DNA of 44,575 nt from a virus (lineage: Duplodnaviria > Heunggongvirae > Uroviricota > Caudoviricetes). A program made the position numbers and the translations under genes. Of the stretch, positions 10,192 through 35,438 are shown one piece after another; position 1 is the stretch's first letter; each line of letters starts with the position of its first letter. The notes beneath the pieces were generated by a model. The model made no database searches and was not told the origin of the DNA. It saw nothing but the letters and a program-made list of their open reading frames with translations. The stretch is taken from IMG/VR virus record IMGVR_UViG_2537561980_000012, one strand, 5' to 3'.

Positions 10192-12110
10192 TATGCAAAC
10201 TCCTCGATAATACAAATCCCTGAAGCGCCTTTCCCGCCCGTCATACTGGTTCCGCTATAACCGGCATCGTATGCGCCACCTCCGCCTGAACCATATGCTT
10301 TACCGATAACACCACCGCCAGCGCCTGCACGTCCACCGCCGCCCCAGTGCGATGTTCCGCCTTCACCGCTGACGCTGATATTTCCGGACTGACCGTCGCC
10401 TCCATCTCCACCAGTGATGCGGATATCGCCAGTACTCGGCACACCTCCGTTACCGCCGTTTGTGTTTGTAACACCCGCTTTCCCGCCACCTTCGCCACCA
10501 GGAGCAATTAACGATGCGAATACGCTATTCCCGCCCCTGGTGCCGTTCGTCGCACTAACACCACCGGCCCCACCTGCGCCGATAGTGACTGGATAACTAT
10601 TCTGTGTCGGGGTCATTATTGAAATTATTGTTCCACCGGCCCCACCGCCAGCACCGAAAAACGTTTCATTATTGGATGCAGCCTTGCAGCCGCCCCCTCC
10701 GCCACCGCCGCCCGTTATTGTGACCCTGATCCGTTTTGTTCCTGGCGTCGGGGTGTATGTACCTGATGAGGTGAAAACCCGGGTATTCAGCCAGCGTCCA
10801 ACGTATCCACTTGCATCGCTCAGACCAAGATATTGAATAACCGCCTGTGTGCTTGCTTTAGCCAGAATATTCCGTCCAACGTTAGTCAGGGTTGTCAGGC
10901 TGGCTGTATCATTCCCCGTAAAATACGGAAGTTTGTCTGCCGCAGTGGCAAGGCCTGCCAGTGCGGTCAGTGTGGCGTCGGCAGGTTGTTTTCCATTGGC
11001 AAGGTCATATACAGCCTTCACGGCTTTTGGTGTGGCAGCCTGCGTTTCTGACGTGCTGTTAGTGGCGCTGCTGAGTTGCACGGTACCTTTTACCGTCAGT
11101 GAAGCTGCAGGCACATCCGATATCTGGCTCCACGGGTGCGTGTGACTGACAGGTGCCTTACCTGCTGCAAGGTCATATGCCGCCTTCACTGCCTTTGGTG
11201 TGGCAGCCTGCGTTTCTGACGTGCTGTTAGTGGCGCTGCTGAGTTGCACGGTGCCTTTTACCGTCAGTGAAGCTGCAGGCACATCCGTTATCTGATTCCA
11301 CGGGTGTGTGTGACTGACAGGTGCCTTACCTGCTGCAAGGTCATATACAGCCTTCACTGCCTTTGGAGTGGCAGCCTGCGTTTCTGATGTGCTGTTAGTG
11401 GCGCTGCTGAGTTGCACAGTGCCTTTTACCGTCAGCGAGGCTGCAGGTACACCTGTTATCTGATTCCACGGGTGTGTGTGACTGGCGGATGCTTTACCTG
11501 CTGCAAGATCATATGCAGCCTTCACAGCCTTCGGTGTTGCGGCCAGTATTTCGGATTCACTGTTGGTCGCACTGCTTAACTGAGTAAAACCTTTTGCAGT
11601 CAGCGAGGCGTCCGGGTGACGTCGTGACTGTTCGTGCTCTGATATTTTGTCATCCACATACTTGCGGGTTGCCAGCACTACAGCAGGGTCGATTTTCAGG
11701 ATGATATTGTCCGTACTACTGGTAATCAGCACCATGCGCACGGTCTGGGTACGCCCACTGCCTTCAGCCAGTTGCGGCTTATAGCTTTCCGGGCAGTTAC
11801 CCACGGCAATCAATGCCCCGGACTCATCAAACAAGCCCACTTCACGTATCCACCAACCGCCCTCGTTTTCAGGGATCACCTGTTCAGCAATAATCTGGCT
11901 GCTGTTCTGCGGGTCGATATAGAGCATATTCAGCGCAGCCCGGCGTTTCTCATTTACCAGTGCTGTCTGCTTTGCGCCCGGCGTTGGTAATGTTCCGCCG
12001 CCATCGCCGACCGCCATATGGGTAATTTTTAAAGGCACACCGAGCGCGGCGGCGCTGGCAAGTTTCGCCGCGCCAATATCCGTCAGCAGGGTATAAAATT
12101 TTGTGCTCAT
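10191..12110 (-). CDS. H: Tail fibre protein H with internal tandem repeats and Gly-rich C-terminal domain
   Basis: N-terminus 'MSTKFYTLLTDIGAAKLA' like P2 H; 52-aa unit '...SHTHPWNQIT.VPAASLTVKGTVQLSSATNSTSETQAATPKAVKA.YDLAAGKAP.' repeated about 4 times. Confidence 0.9.
   Translation of the reverse strand: MSTKFYTLLTDIGAAKLASAAALGVPLKITHMAVGDGGGTLPTPGAKQTALVNEKRRAALNMLYIDPQNSSQIIAEQVIPENEGGWWIREVGLFDESGALIAVGNCPESYKPQLAEGSGRTQTVRMVLITSSTDNIILKIDPAVVLATRKYVDDKISEHEQSRRHPDASLTAKGFTQLSSATNSESEILAATPKAVKAAYDLAAGKASASHTHPWNQITGVPAASLTVKGTVQLSSATNSTSETQAATPKAVKAVYDLAAGKAPVSHTHPWNQITDVPAASLTVKGTVQLSSATNSTSETQAATPKAVKAAYDLAAGKAPVSHTHPWSQISDVPAASLTVKGTVQLSSATNSTSETQAATPKAVKAVYDLANGKQPADATLTALAGLATAADKLPYFTGNDTASLTTLTNVGRNILAKASTQAVIQYLGLSDASGYVGRWLNTRVFTSSGTYTPTPGTKRIRVTITGGGGGGGGCKAASNNETFFGAGGGAGGTIISIMTPTQNSYPVTIGAGGAGGVSATNGTRGGNSVFASLIAPGGEGGGKAGVTNTNGGNGGVPSTGDIRITGGDGGDGQSGNISVSGEGGTSHWGGGGRAGAGGGVIGKAYGSGGGGAYDAGYSGTSMTGGKGASGICIIEEFA
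10990..11600. repeat. Coding tandem repeats (about 156-bp unit, roughly 3.5 copies) inside tail fibre gene H
   Basis: Near-identical 156-bp blocks starting around 11150, 11306 and 11462 with single-base differences. Confidence 0.8.
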
Positions 12111-23374: not shown

Positions 23375-23896
23375 TCAGTTAATCAGTTTATTTAATGACT
23401 TAGACCACTTCTGTCCCAAATCATCAATATCAAAATCACCATCTCGCTGCTGCCATTTAAAAACTAAGGCTATAAGTTCACTCTTGAGGATTCTTTTATA
23501 ATAATCCTTAGATTTTAATTGCTCAAGTATATGTTCACCAACCTCAGCAAGCTTTCTATGATTTAATTCTGACAGATCTCGATGCAAATGGTTAACTGAT
23601 TTATACAAAGTATTTCCTTCAGTACGAGAAATATCAATACCTTTATCTTCAAACCATTGTGAATCAAGCCAAACCAAATCTATCGTAGCTGGCTCTGACA
23701 TCGTGGTGGCAAGGGCAACAATAATTTTCTCTACCGATTCATCTTGAAAATCGATAGAGTCAGAAACCCAAACTGACAAGGTGTTATTAGAGGTCCTTGT
23801 GCAACCTGTTATCGCGTCTGCGGATATATTGTCAGGTGCTCTACCTTTATTACATTCCCATTTACTATGGGATATTTTACGCAATAAATATGTCAT
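23375..23896 (-). CDS. Hypothetical protein, third gene of AT-rich cargo operon (173 aa)
   Basis: ATG overlaps the upstream stop as TAATG; low GC; no recognisable motif. Confidence 0.7.
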   Translation of the reverse strand: MTYLLRKISHSKWECNKGRAPDNISADAITGCTRTSNNTLSVWVSDSIDFQDESVEKIIVALATTMSEPATIDLVWLDSQWFEDKGIDISRTEGNTLYKSVNHLHRDLSELNHRKLAEVGEHILEQLKSKDYYKRILKSELIALVFKWQQRDGDFDIDDLGQKWSKSLNKLIN

Positions 23897-24543
23897 TATA
23901 GACTTCTCAAATATCCTATAACTGCTTCTTTATATTCTTCCACCCAATCAGCATCAAATTTCCTCATTCTTTCAAGGACTGGAATAAATGATTTTTCCCC
24001 CCAAGACTCAACTGCACGGATCGCTGCCTCAAATATAAGTTCATTCTCAAGAGAACAAACTCCCATAATCATAGCGTCAGCTTTATTACCTAACCATTCA
24101 TATTCAATAGTCGATGCAAAATTAATGAAGTTCTTTACATGTTGATCATTCATTCTGTACAATTGTACCCATGTCCTTTGAAAGGACTCTTGGAATAAAT
24201 CCTGATTTTTATCATACAAGAACTCCATGTAAATCTGTGTCTTGCTTATCTCGCCTTCAATGTAATCTTCTGAACATGTTAACTCAATTAGTCTAGAGGT
24301 ACATTTTGAAACCTGAATTTCAAAGTTCTGCTTAGTTGACGAACCTTGATTTATTGACTCAGTCTCTAATTGAAAGCCACCATTTGTTTTGCTATGTGAC
24401 AGCTCATTTCTTTTAATATCAGCGTAAATGATATTGTTACCATCATAATAATCAGAAAATGCACCTATTGAACTTACCCCATTTTTAAACTTAGGTAAGC
24501 CAAAAGGCTTTTCATCACTTATTATAAAACTATTCTTTACCAT
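23896..24543 (-). CDS. Hypothetical protein, second gene of AT-rich cargo operon (215 aa)
   Basis: Starts 9 nt after the upstream stop with 'aggtga' RBS; no recognisable motif. Confidence 0.7.
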   Translation of the reverse strand: MVKNSFIISDEKPFGLPKFKNGVSSIGAFSDYYDGNNIIYADIKRNELSHSKTNGGFQLETESINQGSSTKQNFEIQVSKCTSRLIELTCSEDYIEGEISKTQIYMEFLYDKNQDLFQESFQRTWVQLYRMNDQHVKNFINFASTIEYEWLGNKADAMIMGVCSLENELIFEAAIRAVESWGEKSFIPVLERMRKFDADWVEEYKEAVIGYLRSL

Positions 24544-24552
24544 AGCATCACC

Positions 24553-25248
24553 TTACAGAGAAGTGTAGCGTTGTAAATTATCAATAGTTTTAAGATTGTC
24601 CTGACACAATAACTCTAGCACGCGGATATATTCATCCCAACCAAACCGCATATATCCATTTTGAGGAAGAGTATTAGTATCAGTTTCAAATAATACGCAA
24701 TCACTTGGCATACCATTATTCAAAAATGGAGCTGAAATTTCAGCGCGTCTAATTGTACTAATACTATTAATTTCTTCCTGATACTCTTCAATATTTTTCC
24801 TTACAGCTATACGATTGTCCCACTCAAATGGATTAACACCTTTATAGGTAAACAAAGCATTGTAAAGCGAAAAGTAAACAGATTCATCCCCTTGATAGAT
24901 ACGTGAATTCAGAACAGCTATCCTATTTCCTTTTTTCATCGGAAATACGTTTTGTAGTTCCCTAGATATAGATAGAACCATTTCTGAAAACGCTTGAGGT
25001 TCCCCCCCCAAACCATTAAAAATGATTCCATGGCTAGGAAACTCGACTCTTACTGTTTGATTGGTATCTACCATGATAAGAATTTGCTTTTTCTCACCAG
25101 TGATGGCATTAATCTCCTGACCAAAAGTAGGTACAAATCCAAATTTTCCAATCTTATCAAGCATAGATCCAATAGTTAGTGTATTTGGAACTATATCATT
25201 ATTATTTGTGAAAAAATTAATCTGATGCGTCTGTTCAATCAATTTCAT
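24553..25248 (-). CDS. Hypothetical protein, first gene of AT-rich cargo operon (231 aa)
   Basis: ATG start with AGGAG 6 nt upstream; no recognisable motif. Confidence 0.7.
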   Translation of the reverse strand: MKLIEQTHQINFFTNNNDIVPNTLTIGSMLDKIGKFGFVPTFGQEINAITGEKKQILIMVDTNQTVRVEFPSHGIIFNGLGGEPQAFSEMVLSISRELQNVFPMKKGNRIAVLNSRIYQGDESVYFSLYNALFTYKGVNPFEWDNRIAVRKNIEEYQEEINSISTIRRAEISAPFLNNGMPSDCVLFETDTNTLPQNGYMRFGWDEYIRVLELLCQDNLKTIDNLQRYTSL

Positions 25249-25404: not shown

Positions 25405-25459
25405 CCGCCACGCCTGCCCGCTTTATGTAGTGGTTTTCATGCACCTGCATGAGCTACGC

Positions 25460-25483
25460 AAAAGCCCGCCAGTTCTGGCGGGC
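25460..25483 (-). terminator. Rho-independent terminator downstream of the DinI-like gene
   Basis: Stem 'gcccgccag'/'ctggcgggc' followed by a T-run on the minus strand. Confidence 0.6.
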
Positions 25484-25618
25484 CTTAGCAAAAACGATCC
25501 TCAAACGATCATGCGATCTCATGCGGCATAGACATGCACTACAGAGCTAACGCCTCGCAAGGGCTCGTTGTTCAACCTTGCTGACGCCAGAAGCAAGTTC
25601 AGACGCCAGCAACGTTTC

Positions 25619-25849
25619 TTAATGCAGCCAGCTGTCGTCTTCCCACACCTTCTGCATAATTTTCATCACTTGTTTTCTTTCTTCGTCCAGTTGCAGTCCG
25701 GTTAGTTCCACACCGTTAGAGCTACCTTTGCGAATGCGAATTACCGTTTTGGGATACAGGGGGCGCAGATTGCGGTAAAGCTCGGATTCAAGGGCGTCCA
25801 GGGTAGACTGGCTAATCTTCTGCTCTTTATCGATCATTATTTCAATGCG
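25619..25849 (-). CDS. DinI-family protein (Tum-like antirepressor C-terminal module)
   Basis: 'MRIEIMIDKEQ...LDALESELYRNLRPLYP...VWEDDSW' resembles E. coli DinI ('MRIEVTIAK...AGELSRRIQYAFP...TWESADDW'); GAGGTGA RBS before the ATG. Confidence 0.7.
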   Translation of the reverse strand, partial: RIEIMIDKEQKISQSTLDALESELYRNLRPLYPKTVIRIRKGSSNGVELTGLQLDEERKQVMKIMQKVWEDDSWLH

Positions 25850-25862
25850 CATAAAAGTCACC

Positions 25863-26051
25863 TCAGCTGATGACATCCATTGAGCGGTTGTATTCGTGGG
25901 TTCTGATTTTTGCCATGAGTTCATCAGTCAATTCAGAAACCCACTGCAGAGCCAGCCCCTTCTCTTCATCACTACACTCACTAGCCGCTACAAGCTTAAG
26001 AAAAAAATCAATGCGCTGGAGCTTCAAAGACTCCAAAAAATAGTCCTGCAT
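25863..26051 (-). CDS. Small SOS-regulated protein (62 aa), co-transcribed with the DinI-like gene
   Basis: ATG at 26051 with GGAGG RBS; LexA box about 45 bp upstream; its stop overlaps the RBS of the next gene. Confidence 0.5.
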   Translation of the reverse strand: MQDYFLESLKLQRIDFFLKLVAASECSDEEKGLALQWVSELTDELMAKIRTHEYNRSMDVIS

Positions 26052-26092
26052 CTTTCCTCCTATGACACCACACGCAATACTGTATGTATAAC

Positions 26093-26112
26093 CACTGTTT
26101 ATATTTACAGTA
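26093..26112. promoter_or_regulatory. LexA operator (SOS box) CTGT-N8-ACAG
   Basis: 'cACTGTttatatttACAGTa', perfect to the core consensus, overlapping an AT-rich -10-like region. Confidence 0.75.
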
Positions 26113-26204
26113 TATAATAATCTTACTGATGTAAAACGTTTTTTTACATTCATCAGCCTGATATGCCTGGTATTATTAAGAGCACGAATTGTTAACCCGC
26201 GTAA

Positions 26205-28618
26205 TTAATACAGGTTCCGCCACTGATCATCTTCCTGCAAACGCTGGCTCCGATAGAAGATACGCAGGCCTGCTCCTGACGGAATACTGCCTCCGCGAAG
26301 GAGTAAATCGACCTCTTTCTCGCTGCCATCAAATCCTCTGGACTTCAGCTCATACACGAGCTGCAGTCGCTGATGGTCTGTAATTCGCTGTTTGTAGTCT
26401 TTACGCCGTTTCGGTTTCACCAGGCATAACCTTGCTGCCAGTTCCCGGCGCTCTTTTTTGCTCATACTGTGCAGGTAATCGTGCAACTCCTTGTCATCCA
26501 TGCTGGTAATGTCCGTTCTGGGGTCCCCATCAGCTGATTTATCTTTCTCCTGTTGGTTCAAATTTTCAGCAAGGGGACAGTTATTGCCACGAGTCCAAGG
26601 GGCGCAAGCGCCCTGGTCGGCTGCCGCCTCCTGAACGTCAACGGCTTTACGAACCATTTTCCACTTCACTGCATGAGTGCAGATCTTGCCCTCTGCAATG
26701 GGTGACCAGATGCCATAAATACGAATACCGTGATCGCCATAGGCGGTCGGCTCTTCGTTGATTTCATAAGCGGTTCTGATGAGGTGATATTTACGGGGAA
26801 CCAGTACGCCGCCCTGCTTCATGATGTAGGTGGCAAAGCAACCAGCATCAGCTGCAGCCAGAATGGCATCAAGGCGCTGGTTATCCAGTACCGGCGCACC
26901 TGCTTTTTTGTCACCCTGTTGCCTTGCCGCCTGACCAGCCAGCAATCGCAGTTCACGGTAAGCCTGACGCCCCGGAATGCCAAAGAAGCGGAATTGCTGA
27001 ACACGATGCAGAGACGCCCAGGCATTAACGTATTCAGCGTTATCACGCAGAGATTTACCCGTTTCCTTGCTGATCTCGCCAGCCAGACCACGCCCGTCAA
27101 TGTTCTTACTGATATATTTCGCGATGTAGCTTGTCGGCGTTCCTTTGCGCGGGTTAATCAACTCAGACTTAAAGCGCGGCCCAGTGTTATTGCCCAGCTC
27201 CTCGCGGTCTTCACGGATGGCAAACTTACGCAGTAATGCAGTGATGGCGCGGCGGCTTTTTTGCGCATAAAACACAACAGGTGCCAGTGAACTGTACCGT
27301 CATGATGCGGCTCAGCCACCCGCACGCCATACCAGCGCAATCCGGCTTTGTGCATCGCCTTACGAAATGCAGCAAACATGCCGACCAGATAGTCGCTGCT
27401 TTGTCTTACCGTCGAGTTTGTCCAGGTCGGGTTGGGTCTGCCGTTATTGAGCGTGGAATGGAAACGCGACGGACAGGTGATAGTGTAGAAAACGGCGCAG
27501 TCACCGCGCATTTCCGCGATAAGCTCCAGACCTTTAACACAGGCCATCATCTCATTGCGGCGATGCGCCGGGTTGCTGCTGCTGGCGTTTACCACATCTT
27601 CCATATCCAGCGTGTCGCCGTCTTCGTTCACCAGTTCATGAGAACGGAAAAACTCCAGCGACTTACGGCGCTGCTCACGTTTATGCATCACGGCTTCATA
27701 GCTGACATAGGGGGATGCTTTTTTGCTGACCAGGCAGACAGCACGCAACTGCTCTTCCCGCCATTCGCAACGCATCTTCCATAATTTCCGATACCACCAG
27801 TCGGCACACAACATACGCGCCAGCGAACCCGGAATGAGTTCATAGGGCACGGGTTTACGGCGGTTTCTTTTCCGACGGAGTTGCTCAAACGCAGGCGGAA
27901 TAACATCCAGACGCAGGGTTTCCGCTGCCACCTTTTCCCATGTTTTGCGGATTTCTTCTGGCTTAACGTCATCGGTGGCATACAAATCACCACAAGCGGC
28001 ATCAAGGCACATGCTCATATGCGCAGCGACAAGGGTGGACAGGCGCTTCACCTGATCCTGACTCATTTCAGGCAGGATAAGCAGGCCATCCAGCCCTTCA
28101 TGGCTTGCCATAAAGCGAAAAGAAGTGGATAGCTGACAGTCGCGGACATGCTCCAGTCGTTCCAGACATGGCTTAATCGTCTCACGCAAATAGCGGGAAT
28201 AAGCCTTTGGCCTGCCCAGGCTGCTGAAATATTCAATACGTTGCATCAGCGGCTTGCTGATATGGGAAGGCTGGGCGTTGACGTCAGCCAGAATGACCAT
28301 GTCCGGATTAAAACGCTGCTGCTCATGCGCCAGCTTTGCCCGGCTAATGAGCTTATCCTGCTCCATTTCGCGCTGGACAGGATCACGGGATTCATTAAAG
28401 AAATAACGCTCCCAGACCTGATCACTCAGTGCCTCGCGGCGCAGTTGTTCCTGCTCGTTATCGGCAGCGTACAGAGTGATCAGGTTTGAAAGTGCAGAAA
28501 CCGGCGCAACTTCCGCCGGGTCCAGATAAGGGTTAATGGCCTTTTTTGGGCTGTTCCATGAGAATGCTGCGGCGACCTCGTTAAAGCCGCTGCAGTTGTT
28601 CATATCAGCATGGCTCAT
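26205..28618 (-). CDS. A: Replication initiation protein A (rolling-circle HUH endonuclease), interrupted by a 1-nt deletion in a T6/A6 run (plus 27257-27262)
   Basis: '[17 protein letters not shown]' then, after a frame change, '[12 protein letters not shown]...[12 protein letters not shown]', colinear with P2 A; adding one A in 'cgcaaaaaagcc' restores the frame. Confidence 0.85.
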
Positions 28619-31664: not shown

Positions 31665-32297
31665 ATGTTAAACATCAGAATGGGTTCCGATACGGGAGGT
31701 AAAGCAGCTATTGAGAGGCTGCTTGCGGCTTATGGATTCACAACTAAGCAGGCATTAAGTGAGCACCTGAATGTCTCAAAAAGCACTATGGCAAACAGAG
31801 TGTTACGTGACAGCTTTCCTGCTGACTGGATAATTCAGTGCGCACTAGAAACCGGTGTTTCGTTGCTTTGGTTAGCTACAGGACAGGGAAGCATGAAAGC
31901 AGGATCTGAGACTGAAAAAAGATCTCATAATGAGAACAAACAAGCAATTAAACCGTTATCTAAACTCATAACTCCATCTATTCCTAAAGGAACCTTGGAG
32001 AATGGACAACTCAGTATTGATGAAGAGATTTTCCTAGACCACAGCATATTACCTGCAAATTATGAAGAATCGATGTTCTTAGAAACCCCTACTGATTGTT
32101 ATCTCATCGATAAATCAGTTAAACAAGTCAGCAATGGATTCTGGCTTATCAATATTGATGGAATGATTATTATTGCAAAAATTATGCGGATTCCCGGCAA
32201 TAAGATTGTAGTAAATCAAGATGAAGCGTCTTTCGAGTGCTCTGCTGATGATGTGGAAGTTATTGGGCGTGCAGTCAAAGTAATAAAGAGTATCTAA
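31665..32297 (+). CDS. cI: CI repressor (186 type, HTH N-terminus plus oligomerisation domain)
   Basis: 210 aa with HTH 'TTKQALSEHLNVSKSTMANRV'; immediately followed by int in the same orientation, as in phage 186. Confidence 0.8.
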   Translation: MLNIRMGSDTGGKAAIERLLAAYGFTTKQALSEHLNVSKSTMANRVLRDSFPADWIIQCALETGVSLLWLATGQGSMKAGSETEKRSHNENKQAIKPLSKLITPSIPKGTLENGQLSIDEEIFLDHSILPANYEESMFLETPTDCYLIDKSVKQVSNGFWLINIDGMIIIAKIMRIPGNKIVVNQDEASFECSADDVEVIGRAVKVIKSI

Positions 32298-33695: not shown

Positions 33696-35438
33696 CTACT
33701 CAAGAAGATATTCTAACTCATCTTTTATCGGGATAACTTGCTCATAAAGTCGGTGATATGACTTCCCAATTGCGCCTCTGAATTGTATTAACTTTGGTGG
33801 CTTGTTACCTATATTAATAATATGGTCTTGAGCTATACCTGGGTAGGGATCAATAAATACAATTTCAGATATACCTAACTGATAAGCTTTTTTCGCACAC
33901 AGCTCACAGGGACTGGCAGTTGTATATAACCTCCCCCCCTGAACGCCAATGCCACCATATTTTGCAAGTTGTAAAAATGCGTTTTCCTCAGCATGTAATG
34001 CACGTGTATGAACTTGATTACCTTTTTTATCTTTATCAAGATCATTATGTATATCTTTAAAACAATAAGATAAGTTCCTGCCTCTATAAATATCACCAGT
34101 TTTATCTATCGCCCTAAAATTTAATAGTTTCTCATTAGCTTTAATTCTGAAAGAACTATTATTTCTCTCATAATGACTGTACACTTTTTCATCAAAGTCG
34201 TTCATTAGGCCATCTAGCGATCTCATAGAGCAAGGAATCTGACCGTTGGCGACATCATTCCAACCCACTGATTTTATTGAATTTTCACCATCAGTTACTA
34301 CAGCTCCCACCTGTCTAGATATACAACCAGAGTTTAATTTTACCGTATACGCAACTTGCATAACCCTTTCCATTGCAGTAGGTGTTATCAGACCAGGATG
34401 CTTCATCAGTGCGATGTACCACGCTAATTGTGCTTTTAAAATATTGTCATTATCAAATTCATTTTTTGGGTTAAAAATGTGTATATCTGATAGTTCAATG
34501 CATTTAGTTACATTTGGATTAGTGAGATGTTTGTAAGAGTTATCACCTTTACCTGACTCTACAGAATCTATTTCCTCTATCTGCTTTTCAGAAAACTTAT
34601 GTAGTTTCCGCAAATAGTTTGTTCGATGTTCATCTGGGGCATTTATTGACATTAAATGAAATGCAGAATATCTATCCTTAAAAAATTTTGCTTCATATGG
34701 ATTTCTAATAGCATCTATGACAATTAATGCGTTATCTCTTTTGCTTTTTCTTATTAATTTAATAACCCTATTAATAGTTTCCGGCAAATGAAAAACAGAT
34801 TTAGGTATAAACTCTTTATCTTCAAAATCGACTTCAATACGCCCACGGCGTCTAATTGACTTACCTGCTAACTGATAGACTGAAACATATAAATTTGAGT
34901 TTATCGCATTTAGTTCAGCTTTGAATTCCTTAGTAAATTTTCTAACTAACCTCAAAATTGATATAAATTTATTAATCGTTTTTTCATTAAGCTTCAATTC
35001 ACTATTATGATCAAGCAAATTCTCAATTACATTTTTAAATCTTGTTAAAATGAGATTATCTGAAAATACACCAAAAGTTAATACATTATCTAAATGCTCT
35101 TTACTGATAGATTTATTAGATGATAGAATAAACTCAGAAGCTTCTTCAACTGTTAACATCAAAAGATACGCTGAGATTAGGTCACTCACCTTAATTGAGT
35201 AAAAATTTTCCCAGTGATTTTCTGCGAATTTTTTAACTATATTATAACGATGGACATCCAATCCCTTGTAAAAACCCTGTAATTTACTTACATCAGGGAA
35301 GACTGTTTTTTCGTTTTCAAGAATATTAGCTGTTGTTGTGCAACCAGAACCAGTTCGACCTGTCAAACCGACTAAAATAAACTGCCCATTTTCAAGGAAA
35401 AGCTCACTAACGAATTTTTTTCTTTCATCACGTCCCAC
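33696..35438 (-). CDS. P-loop nucleotide kinase fused to cytidine/dCMP deaminase (AvcD / defensive dCTP-deaminase type)
   Basis: N-terminal Walker-A-like 'GLTGRTGSGCTTT'; C-terminal zinc-deaminase motifs 'HAEENAF' and 'PCELCAKKA'. Very low GC. ORF as given starts at GTG; an ATG at 35426-35428 becomes in-frame if the T7 run at 35415-35421 is one base short. Confidence 0.75.
   Translation of the reverse strand: MGRDERKKFVSELFLENGQFILVGLTGRTGSGCTTTANILENEKTVFPDVSKLQGFYKGLDVHRYNIVKKFAENHWENFYSIKVSDLISAYLLMLTVEEASEFILSSNKSISKEHLDNVLTFGVFSDNLILTRFKNVIENLLDHNSELKLNEKTINKFISILRLVRKFTKEFKAELNAINSNLYVSVYQLAGKSIRRRGRIEVDFEDKEFIPKSVFHLPETINRVIKLIRKSKRDNALIVIDAIRNPYEAKFFKDRYSAFHLMSINAPDEHRTNYLRKLHKFSEKQIEEIDSVESGKGDNSYKHLTNPNVTKCIELSDIHIFNPKNEFDNDNILKAQLAWYIALMKHPGLITPTAMERVMQVAYTVKLNSGCISRQVGAVVTDGENSIKSVGWNDVANGQIPCSMRSLDGLMNDFDEKVYSHYERNNSSFRIKANEKLLNFRAIDKTGDIYRGRNLSYCFKDIHNDLDKDKKGNQVHTRALHAEENAFLQLAKYGGIGVQGGRLYTTASPCELCAKKAYQLGISEIVFIDPYPGIAQDHIINIGNKPPKLIQFRGAIGKSYHRLYEQVIPIKDELEYLLE

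Follow-up and report, generated by a model that had tools for sequence, protein, structure and literature searches.

A predicted SOS operon with a split Tum-type antirepressor in an Escherichia coli prophage of the Fels-2/186 type

The antirepressor Tum of phage 186 works by sequestering the repressor CI, which is thereby prevented from binding its operators (PMC7708051; PMC3121763). In Fels-2 and PSP3, tum is split by a stop codon, an earlier observation published for both phages (PMC3121763); for PSP3, the antirepressor activity has been assigned, by personal communication, to the upstream tum gene (PMC3121763), and the GenBank record of this phage names the two genes tumA (‘UV induction of prophage’) and tumB. 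Fels-2 is responsible for the lethality of lexA-null mutations in Salmonella (Bunny et al. 2002, as cited in PMC3121763). In E. coli HS, either deletion of tum or a lexA(Ind-) allele abolishes the lytic replication of prophage DuoHS in response to mitomycin C (PMC12055606, the Phollow study, Nat Microbiol 2025). Here, we compare with these systems the region 25,619–26,112 of IMG/VR record IMGVR_UViG_2537561980_000012, a stretch of 44,575 nucleotides (nt) that is referred to as the window throughout. The region carries an open reading frame (ORF) of 62 amino acids (aa) followed by a DinI-family ORF. It is very probably the SOS operon of a Peduoviridae prophage of the Fels-2/186 type, in which a LexA-repressed promoter drives a TumA antirepressor and a DinI-like TumB. 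Switches of the tumA-tumB type are already known, and the window copy is an unremarkable representative of the Fels-2/DuoHS type.

The identity of the first gene can be read from the DuoHS work itself. The primers used to delete tum from DuoHS, listed in the supplement, join ATAGGAGGAAAGATG straight to TGAGGTGACTTTTATGCGCATTG (PMC12055606), and each of the two sequences has a single, exact match in the window, the first at the start of the 62-aa ORF and the second at its stop. The gene deleted in DuoHS is therefore the tumA orthologue, with the DinI gene and its ribosome-binding site left intact. In effect, the tests proposed in the first-pass annotation of the window have already been done on the near-identical module of E. 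coli HS, with the predicted outcome.

The window sequence is that of a P2/186-like E. coli prophage located beside ssrA; strain CV839-06 has an almost identical one. Its gene order is int, cI, an apl-like gene, cII and fil, and, further along, dam, A, tumA, tumB, a pseudogene remnant, three unknown genes and the portal gene Q. The module thus has replication gene A on one side and the portal/cos end of the genome on the other, as in CV839-06, 186, Fels-2, PSP3 and DuoHS. The first-pass annotation had placed it in the tin/old slot; this placement has to be corrected, as the module occupies the position of p95-tum in 186 and the variable cargo slot is found further downstream, at 23375-25248. 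A role as a tin/old-like defence gene was considered and rejected as well: TumA has no PADLOC match, and the module is a regulatory SOS operon. All module elements are on the minus strand, and gene A ends at 26205. The 96-aa ORF that the ORF-calling program starts at 26153 was discarded as an upstream over-extension, which would include the promoter; the true ATG is at 26051.

Alignment of the 62-aa ORF with 186 Tum, a check called for by the first-pass annotation, gave no match in BLASTP, and a low-diversity profile comparison was suggestive at most (P 0.0016). The homology is clear only because distant relatives were collected. Thus, an exhaustive profile search built the family of the 62-aa ORF (484 cluster hits, 88 representatives at 50% identity, nearly all of them standalone proteins of 50–75 aa), and a family of Tum N-terminal halves was collected independently for profile–profile comparison. 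Aligned with hhalign, the two families match over columns 4–44 on both sides with a probability of 96.7% and an E-value of 3.2e-10. Consistently, hmmsearch with the profile of the 62-aa family finds residues 6–43 of 186 Tum at 33 bits, and residues 7–44 of 186 Tum match phrog_698, which represents the same family, at 2.7e-5. In addition, the 62-aa ORF matches phrog_1993 and phrog_8554, both of which are also matched by 186 Tum. Given this agreement between profiles and PHROG, the 62-aa ORF is of the TumA type, and the earlier view of a 186 Tum-like antirepressor split into two cistrons is correct, the N-half of Tum being matched by profile and the C-half, as described below, at 41% identity.

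Annotation resources are of little help with this small protein: it matches no Pfam, NCBIfam or PADLOC model, its PHROG family is listed as ‘unknown function’, and its RefSeq label is ‘hypothetical protein’. AlphaFold2 predicts a two-helix hairpin (helices 2–23 and 28–61) with a predicted local distance difference test score (pLDDT) of 88.6; no solved structure was found for the family. Natural TumA–DinI fusions of the Rosetta-stone kind were not seen either, the table of the representative search holding no protein of fitting length; two proteins near fusion size carry TumA at their C-terminus. Many distant TumA relatives (e.g. P0265, P0275, P0280, P0293, P0294, P0302 and P0308) end in a glycine-rich tail, KNPQxGGxxxGGxxLQ, which is not present in the TumA of the window.

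The second gene had been called a DinI-family member whose ribosome-binding site is overlapped by the stop codon of the first, and both statements hold. The TGA of the 62-aa ORF (25865-25863) overlaps the Shine-Dalgarno sequence GAGGTGA (25864-25858), and the ATG of tumB, at 25852, follows 5 nt past that sequence, an arrangement that makes translational coupling likely. TumB matches the Pfam DinI family (PF06183) over residues 14–76 with 81.3 bits (cut-off, 24.2) and an E-value of 6.6e-23; its residues 1–75 align with residues 1–77 of the E. coli DinI structure 1GHH, that is, over the full length. With the NCBIfam equivalog model of chromosomal DinI, for which 111 is required, TumB scores 42.7, and it therefore represents a paralogous phage subfamily. 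TumB is 41% identical to residues 71–145 of 186 Tum, and a C-terminal motif, VWEDDSW, is common to TumB of the window, Tum, PSP3 TumB and DinI. By analogy with DinI, the probable targets of TumB are RecA filaments, which it would contact through its acidic C-terminal helix and so tune the SOS signal. Two hairpins follow the gene (Table 1). The second of them, which resembles an intrinsic terminator, is the probable end of the operon; the terminator scan made no call at 25459..25486, where the T tract has just 4 T.

Upstream of tumA, the first-pass annotation had noted a perfect CTGT-N8-ACAG box about 45 bp from the ORF. The distance from the box core to the ATG measures 43 nt, and this copy, CTGTTTATATTTACAG at 26095-26110, is the sole perfect one in the window. 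By itself, the 16-mer pattern does not exceed chance, as 0.61 chance matches are expected and one or more occurred in 46 of 100 shuffles. The full 20-mer TACTGTAAATATAAACAGTG (26112-26093), on the other hand, has 17 of its 20 positions in agreement with the LexA consensus, a score that none of 100 shuffles equalled. The sequence of this operator box is identical in the window, in Fels-2 and in DuoHS of E. coli HS. Together with the conservation of the box among orthologous loci described below, these data argue for the LexA control that had been claimed.

The box is not alone, however, so that the earlier description stands as to the perfect box and fails as to its being single. Box 1, CTGTAAATATAAACAG (26110-26095), shares one base with box 2, the imperfect GTGGTTATACATACAG (26095-26080). 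These two 16-bp boxes with their one-base overlap align column for column with colicin promoters, and over its 42 nt the double element shares 84–86% identity with the promoters that precede colicin-like genes of small Col plasmids. The operator is thus predicted to be a double LexA box of the colicin type. Overlapping SOS boxes in colicin operons bind two LexA dimers cooperatively, giving tight, late induction. By analogy, cooperative binding of LexA, with occupancy of both boxes, and a tight, late response would be expected at the window operator. Of the element, TGGATATAnATACAG is kept in most enterobacterial orthologues.

The promoter that this operator would control is a prediction modelled on 186 p95. 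The -10 assignment follows the p95 architecture: the hexamer TACTGT constitutes the first six bases of the 20-mer TACTGTAAATATAAACAGTG, and the spacer between the -35 and -10 hexamers is 17 nt.

How far the arrangement extends beyond this prophage was examined in a cross-species survey of 40 loci from different Enterobacterales species, which covered only TumA identities of 65–100% and counted a LexA box if it had at most one core mismatch and lay at most 160 nt upstream. A box was present in all 39 loci with enough upstream sequence and was perfect in 29, as compared to 62 of 1157 control windows (5.4%) with a box and 8 (0.7%) with a perfect one. Its placement among the orthologues is distal, proximal or both. 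A DinI gene follows in 21 of the 40 loci, at an intergenic distance of 8–13 nt. Together, tumA and its LexA operator form the conserved core, and the DinI gene is an optional addition. Within E. coli, the module region matches 1,280 of 5,426 complete genomes; in 870 of these the match covers 80% or more of the region, and individual genomes have up to four places that match it. The module is also found in many phage records from Klebsiella, Salmonella and Yersinia.

The presumed target of TumA is the product of the intact cI gene, a repressor of the 186 type. CI matches PF07022 (5.7e-30) and PF16452 (1.7e-30), both of which are defined on 186 CI and correspond to its helix-turn-helix (HTH) and C-terminal (CI_C) domains, and a Peptidase_S24 domain was not detected in it by Pfam. 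CI is thus presumably not RecA-cleavable, and direct RecA-mediated cleavage was rejected as a route to induction. Without the S24 autocleavage domain, a response to SOS therefore needs an antirepressor. In sequence identity, the window CI reaches 30% against 186 CI (full-length alignment), 40% against DuoHS CI and 95% against the CI of RE-2010. In RE-2010, an isolated phage, this closely related CI occurs together with a TumA that is 98% identical, and this co-occurrence supports an action of TumA on the window CI.

Taken together, the following sequence of events can be envisaged. In the undamaged cell, LexA would sit on the double operator, strongly on box 1 and more weakly on box 2; the operator spans the -10 hexamer and the start region of a putative sigma-70 promoter just downstream of gene A, and the operon would be silent. 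Upon DNA damage, activated RecA would promote LexA self-cleavage, and a short bicistronic mRNA would be made from this promoter, presumably to the terminator-like hairpin. TumA would then bind the non-cleavable, 186-type CI stoichiometrically and block its binding to the operators; the early lytic promoter would fire and the prophage would enter lytic growth. TumB, made by translational coupling, would modulate RecA filaments and would not be required for the switch itself.

Several observations weigh against this account. First, a promoter consensus scan made no call here, and the -10 hexamer matches at 3 of 6 positions only, which is weak. Second, LexA may not bind box 2, the core of which has two mismatches; two core mismatches occur likewise in the colicin sequences shown. 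Third, a DinI gene is absent from 19 of the 40 orthologous loci, so that the two-gene module is not obligatory, and deletions of dinI in the Gifsy prophages had no effect on induction (PMC3121763). Fourth, the window CI is so distant from that of DuoHS (40%) that the action of TumA on it is an extrapolation. Fifth, the window differs from CV839-06 by single-base deletions in gene A and in the apl-like gene; if these are real, the switch would fire and induction would be abortive. Finally, the support for the window copy comes from its sequence and its orthologues.

The deletions bear on the rival explanation that survives best, according to which the window prophage is defective and the switch a relic, SOS derepression of the operon being followed by neither replication nor excision nor phage. 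In gene A, an A is missing at ~27255, giving ORFs of 495 and 356 aa, and in the apl-like (apl/cox-like) gene an A is missing at ~31398; either variant is found in none of the 5,426 complete E. coli genomes. Further single-A gaps relative to CV839-06 lie in the dCTP deaminase gene and in a tail gene. All four single-base gaps are thus missing A's, the two that were examined lie in or beside A-runs, and a transposase of the IS4 family is split too. Such a pattern is the signature of homopolymer sequencing error rather than of decay, and for these reasons errors of this kind in the assembly are the likeliest cause of the A and apl deletions. Furthermore, the rest of the prophage is intact, with 99.97% identity to CV839-06 over the 12.9-kb regulatory segment. 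On balance, we consider a defective prophage unlikely, though it is the alternative that deserves most attention. The earlier statement that the prophage is SOS-inducible accordingly holds in so far as a CI of the non-cleavable type needs an antirepressor, whereas productive induction of the window copy, with A and apl frameshifted, is uncertain.

Considerably less probable is a second alternative, namely, that the operon is under LexA control without being a switch here. In that case TumA would miss the divergent CI, the DinI-like protein would be an SOS accessory, and induction would be absent or would take another route. The distance of the window CI from those of DuoHS and 186 speaks for it, as does the presence elsewhere in prophages of LexA-controlled DinI-like genes that have no detectable effect on induction (PMC3121763). 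What decides against it is the company that TumA keeps: near-identical TumA is found with at least four types of CI, RE-2010 among them, and the N-terminal domain of CI is 68–75% conserved among these partners. In addition, no alternative SOS route is visible for a CI that has no S24 domain, and the core conserved across species is tumA plus the LexA box, not DinI. Finally, that the 62-aa ORF is a leader or spurious and the operon simply a phage-borne, LexA-controlled dinI is hardly credible, for while the ORF is bare of domain models, carries a ‘hypothetical’ label and gave an empty BLASTP search against Tum, its length of ~62 aa is kept across Enterobacterales, it has a strong ribosome-binding site, a confidently predicted fold and profile homology to the N-half of Tum, it persists with its LexA box in the 19 loci that have no DinI, and the in-frame deletion of its orthologue abolishes induction of DuoHS, for which this reading is refuted.

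With the antirepressor operon as the preferred interpretation, the range of its CI partners invites a further suggestion. Identical or 98%-identical TumA occurs with the several CI types mentioned above, and in these partners the N-terminal HTH domain is far better kept than the C-terminal (oligomerisation) domain, which is 29–58% identical. These figures hint that the N-terminal domain of CI is what TumA recognizes. It is possible, if somewhat doubtful, that Fels-2-type TumA is a broad-specificity antirepressor, directed at the conserved HTH domain across heteroimmune repressors of the 186 type. If so, a single TumA made during the SOS response could act in trans and induce heteroimmune P2-like prophages residing in the same cell, and the colicin-type double operator would set a high and delayed damage threshold for such a collective decision.

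The coordinates of the operon and of cI are collected in Table 1.

Table 1. Features of the predicted tumA-tumB operon and of the repressor gene in the window.
Feature	Position	Strand	Basis
-35 hexamer TTTACA of the predicted SOS promoter (p95 equivalent)	26130..26135	-	read from sequence
-10 hexamer TACTGT (predicted), within LexA box 1	26107..26112	-	analogy with 186 p95
LexA box 1, TACTGTAAATATAAACAGTG (core CTGT-N8-ACAG, 26095-26110)	26093..26112	-	17/20 consensus
LexA box 2, imperfect, GTGGTTATACATACAG	26080..26095	-	alignment with the one box present in 186 and in PSP3
Shine-Dalgarno sequence AGGAGG of tumA	26056..26061	-	sequence
tumA-type gene, 62 aa + stop, predicted antirepressor, predicted two-helix hairpin	25863..26051	-	homology, primers, model
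Shine-Dalgarno sequence GAGGTGA of tumB, overlaps the tumA stop	25858..25864	-	sequence
tumB-type gene, 77 aa + stop, DinI family	25619..25852	-	Pfam DinI
Strong hairpin right after the tumB stop, without U-tract; possible partial terminator or RNA stabiliser	25574..25616	-	RNA fold
Intrinsic-terminator-like GC-rich hairpin GGCCCGCCAG..CTGGCGGGC, then TTTT	25459..25486	-	sequence, RNA fold
cI, presumed TumA target, 186-type (HTH + CI_C), intact	31665..32297	+	Pfam

The variable, tin/old-type cargo slot, bounded by the tumB terminator and by portal gene Q, consists of three ORFs on the minus strand, of 231, 215 and 173 aa. They had no Pfam or PADLOC match and fall into phrog_19817, phrog_21208 and phrog_10743, all of unknown function; they could constitute an uncharacterised anti-phage system. 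A promoter-like sequence, TTCATA-17-TAGAAT, is found at 25332-25304, just 5' of these ORFs.

Outside the module, the window departs from CV839-06 at several places. It is not colinear with that strain at the reverse-transcriptase end. At 1101-2436, between ogr and a gene with a reverse-transcriptase domain, there is an insertion of ~1.34 kb relative to CV839-06, in which the IS4-family transposase is split into ORFs of 203 and 172 aa; the insertion looks like IS186. Beyond ogr and beside ssrA, positions 1-~774 (minus strand) encode the ~257-aa reverse-transcriptase-domain protein, accompanied by a small upstream ORF (in CV839-06, L003 42625-43398). This protein, at the edge of the window, may be a retron or defence-type reverse transcriptase carried as a moron. 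Outside the int end, at ~33700-35430 (minus strand), lies a neighbouring gene whose counterpart in CV839-06 is annotated as an anti-phage dCTP deaminase; the window copy has its single-A deletion near the start. In the tail-fibre region, at ~10999-11576, overlapping BLAST alignments against CV839-06 point to a differing repeat copy number or a variant segment.

As to what this locus teaches, its value as a discovery is slight, since the switch was defined in 186, its split form in Fels-2 and PSP3, and its requirement proven in E. coli HS. New here are the double operator, the survey that found the box in 39 of 39 loci, the optional nature of DinI, the true position of the cargo slot and the 1-bp deletions in A and apl. 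A practical point follows: the 62-aa antirepressor is missed by annotation and the module is common, and pipelines may therefore overlook the SOS inducibility of such P2-like prophages, which bears on antibiotic-triggered phage release.

Among the described systems, DuoHS and Fels-2 stand closest. DuoHS shares with the window the gene order, the LexA double operator, the -35 and -10 hexamers, a TumA that is one residue apart and an identical DinI protein (WP_001217575.1). It differs in its integration site, in the cargo downstream of the module and in a CI of another immunity type, whose overall identity of 40% is composed of 68% in the N-terminal and 29% in the C-terminal domain. In Fels-2, STM2728 is 98% identical to TumA and STM2726.1 is 100% identical to the DinI-like TumB, and the promoter region is almost identical; the host species and the cargo are different, however, and box 2 differs at two positions. 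PSP3 likewise has two cistrons after gene A behind a LexA box, and its TumB is 78% identical. Its TumA, in contrast, is 22% identical and is barely recognised by the family profile (E 0.009 when 3 sequences were searched), and PSP3 has a single LexA box, in the proximal position.

Phage 186 provides the fused counterpart. Its 146-aa Tum lies in the same position after gene A, with an N-half that resembles TumA and a C-half that resembles TumB, and its CI has the same two Pfam domains. The p95 promoter, with TTCACA, an 18-nt spacer and a TACTGT that forms the first 6 nt of the LexA site, has the same architecture as that of the window. Unlike in the window, both halves are fused in one frame, with ~20% identity in the N-half, there is a single LexA box, and orf97 continues the operon, whereas the window has unrelated cargo past the terminator. 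The 186 record also lists a DinI-only product from an internal GTG, which ‘modulates SOS induction’. The colicin promoters share with the window the 42-nt element TACTGT..ACAGTGGTTATA..ATACAGTATT, at the identity given above, located ~44 nt before the start codon with the same spacing; they drive a bacteriocin, whereas the window operator would drive an antirepressor. Lastly, the Gifsy dinI-gfoA/gftA operons resemble the window module in being LexA-controlled and in encoding both a homologue of DinI and a small antirepressor that acts on a non-cleavable repressor (PMC3121763); they differ in that dinI comes first, in that the antirepressor and repressor families are unrelated, and in that the phages are lambdoid.

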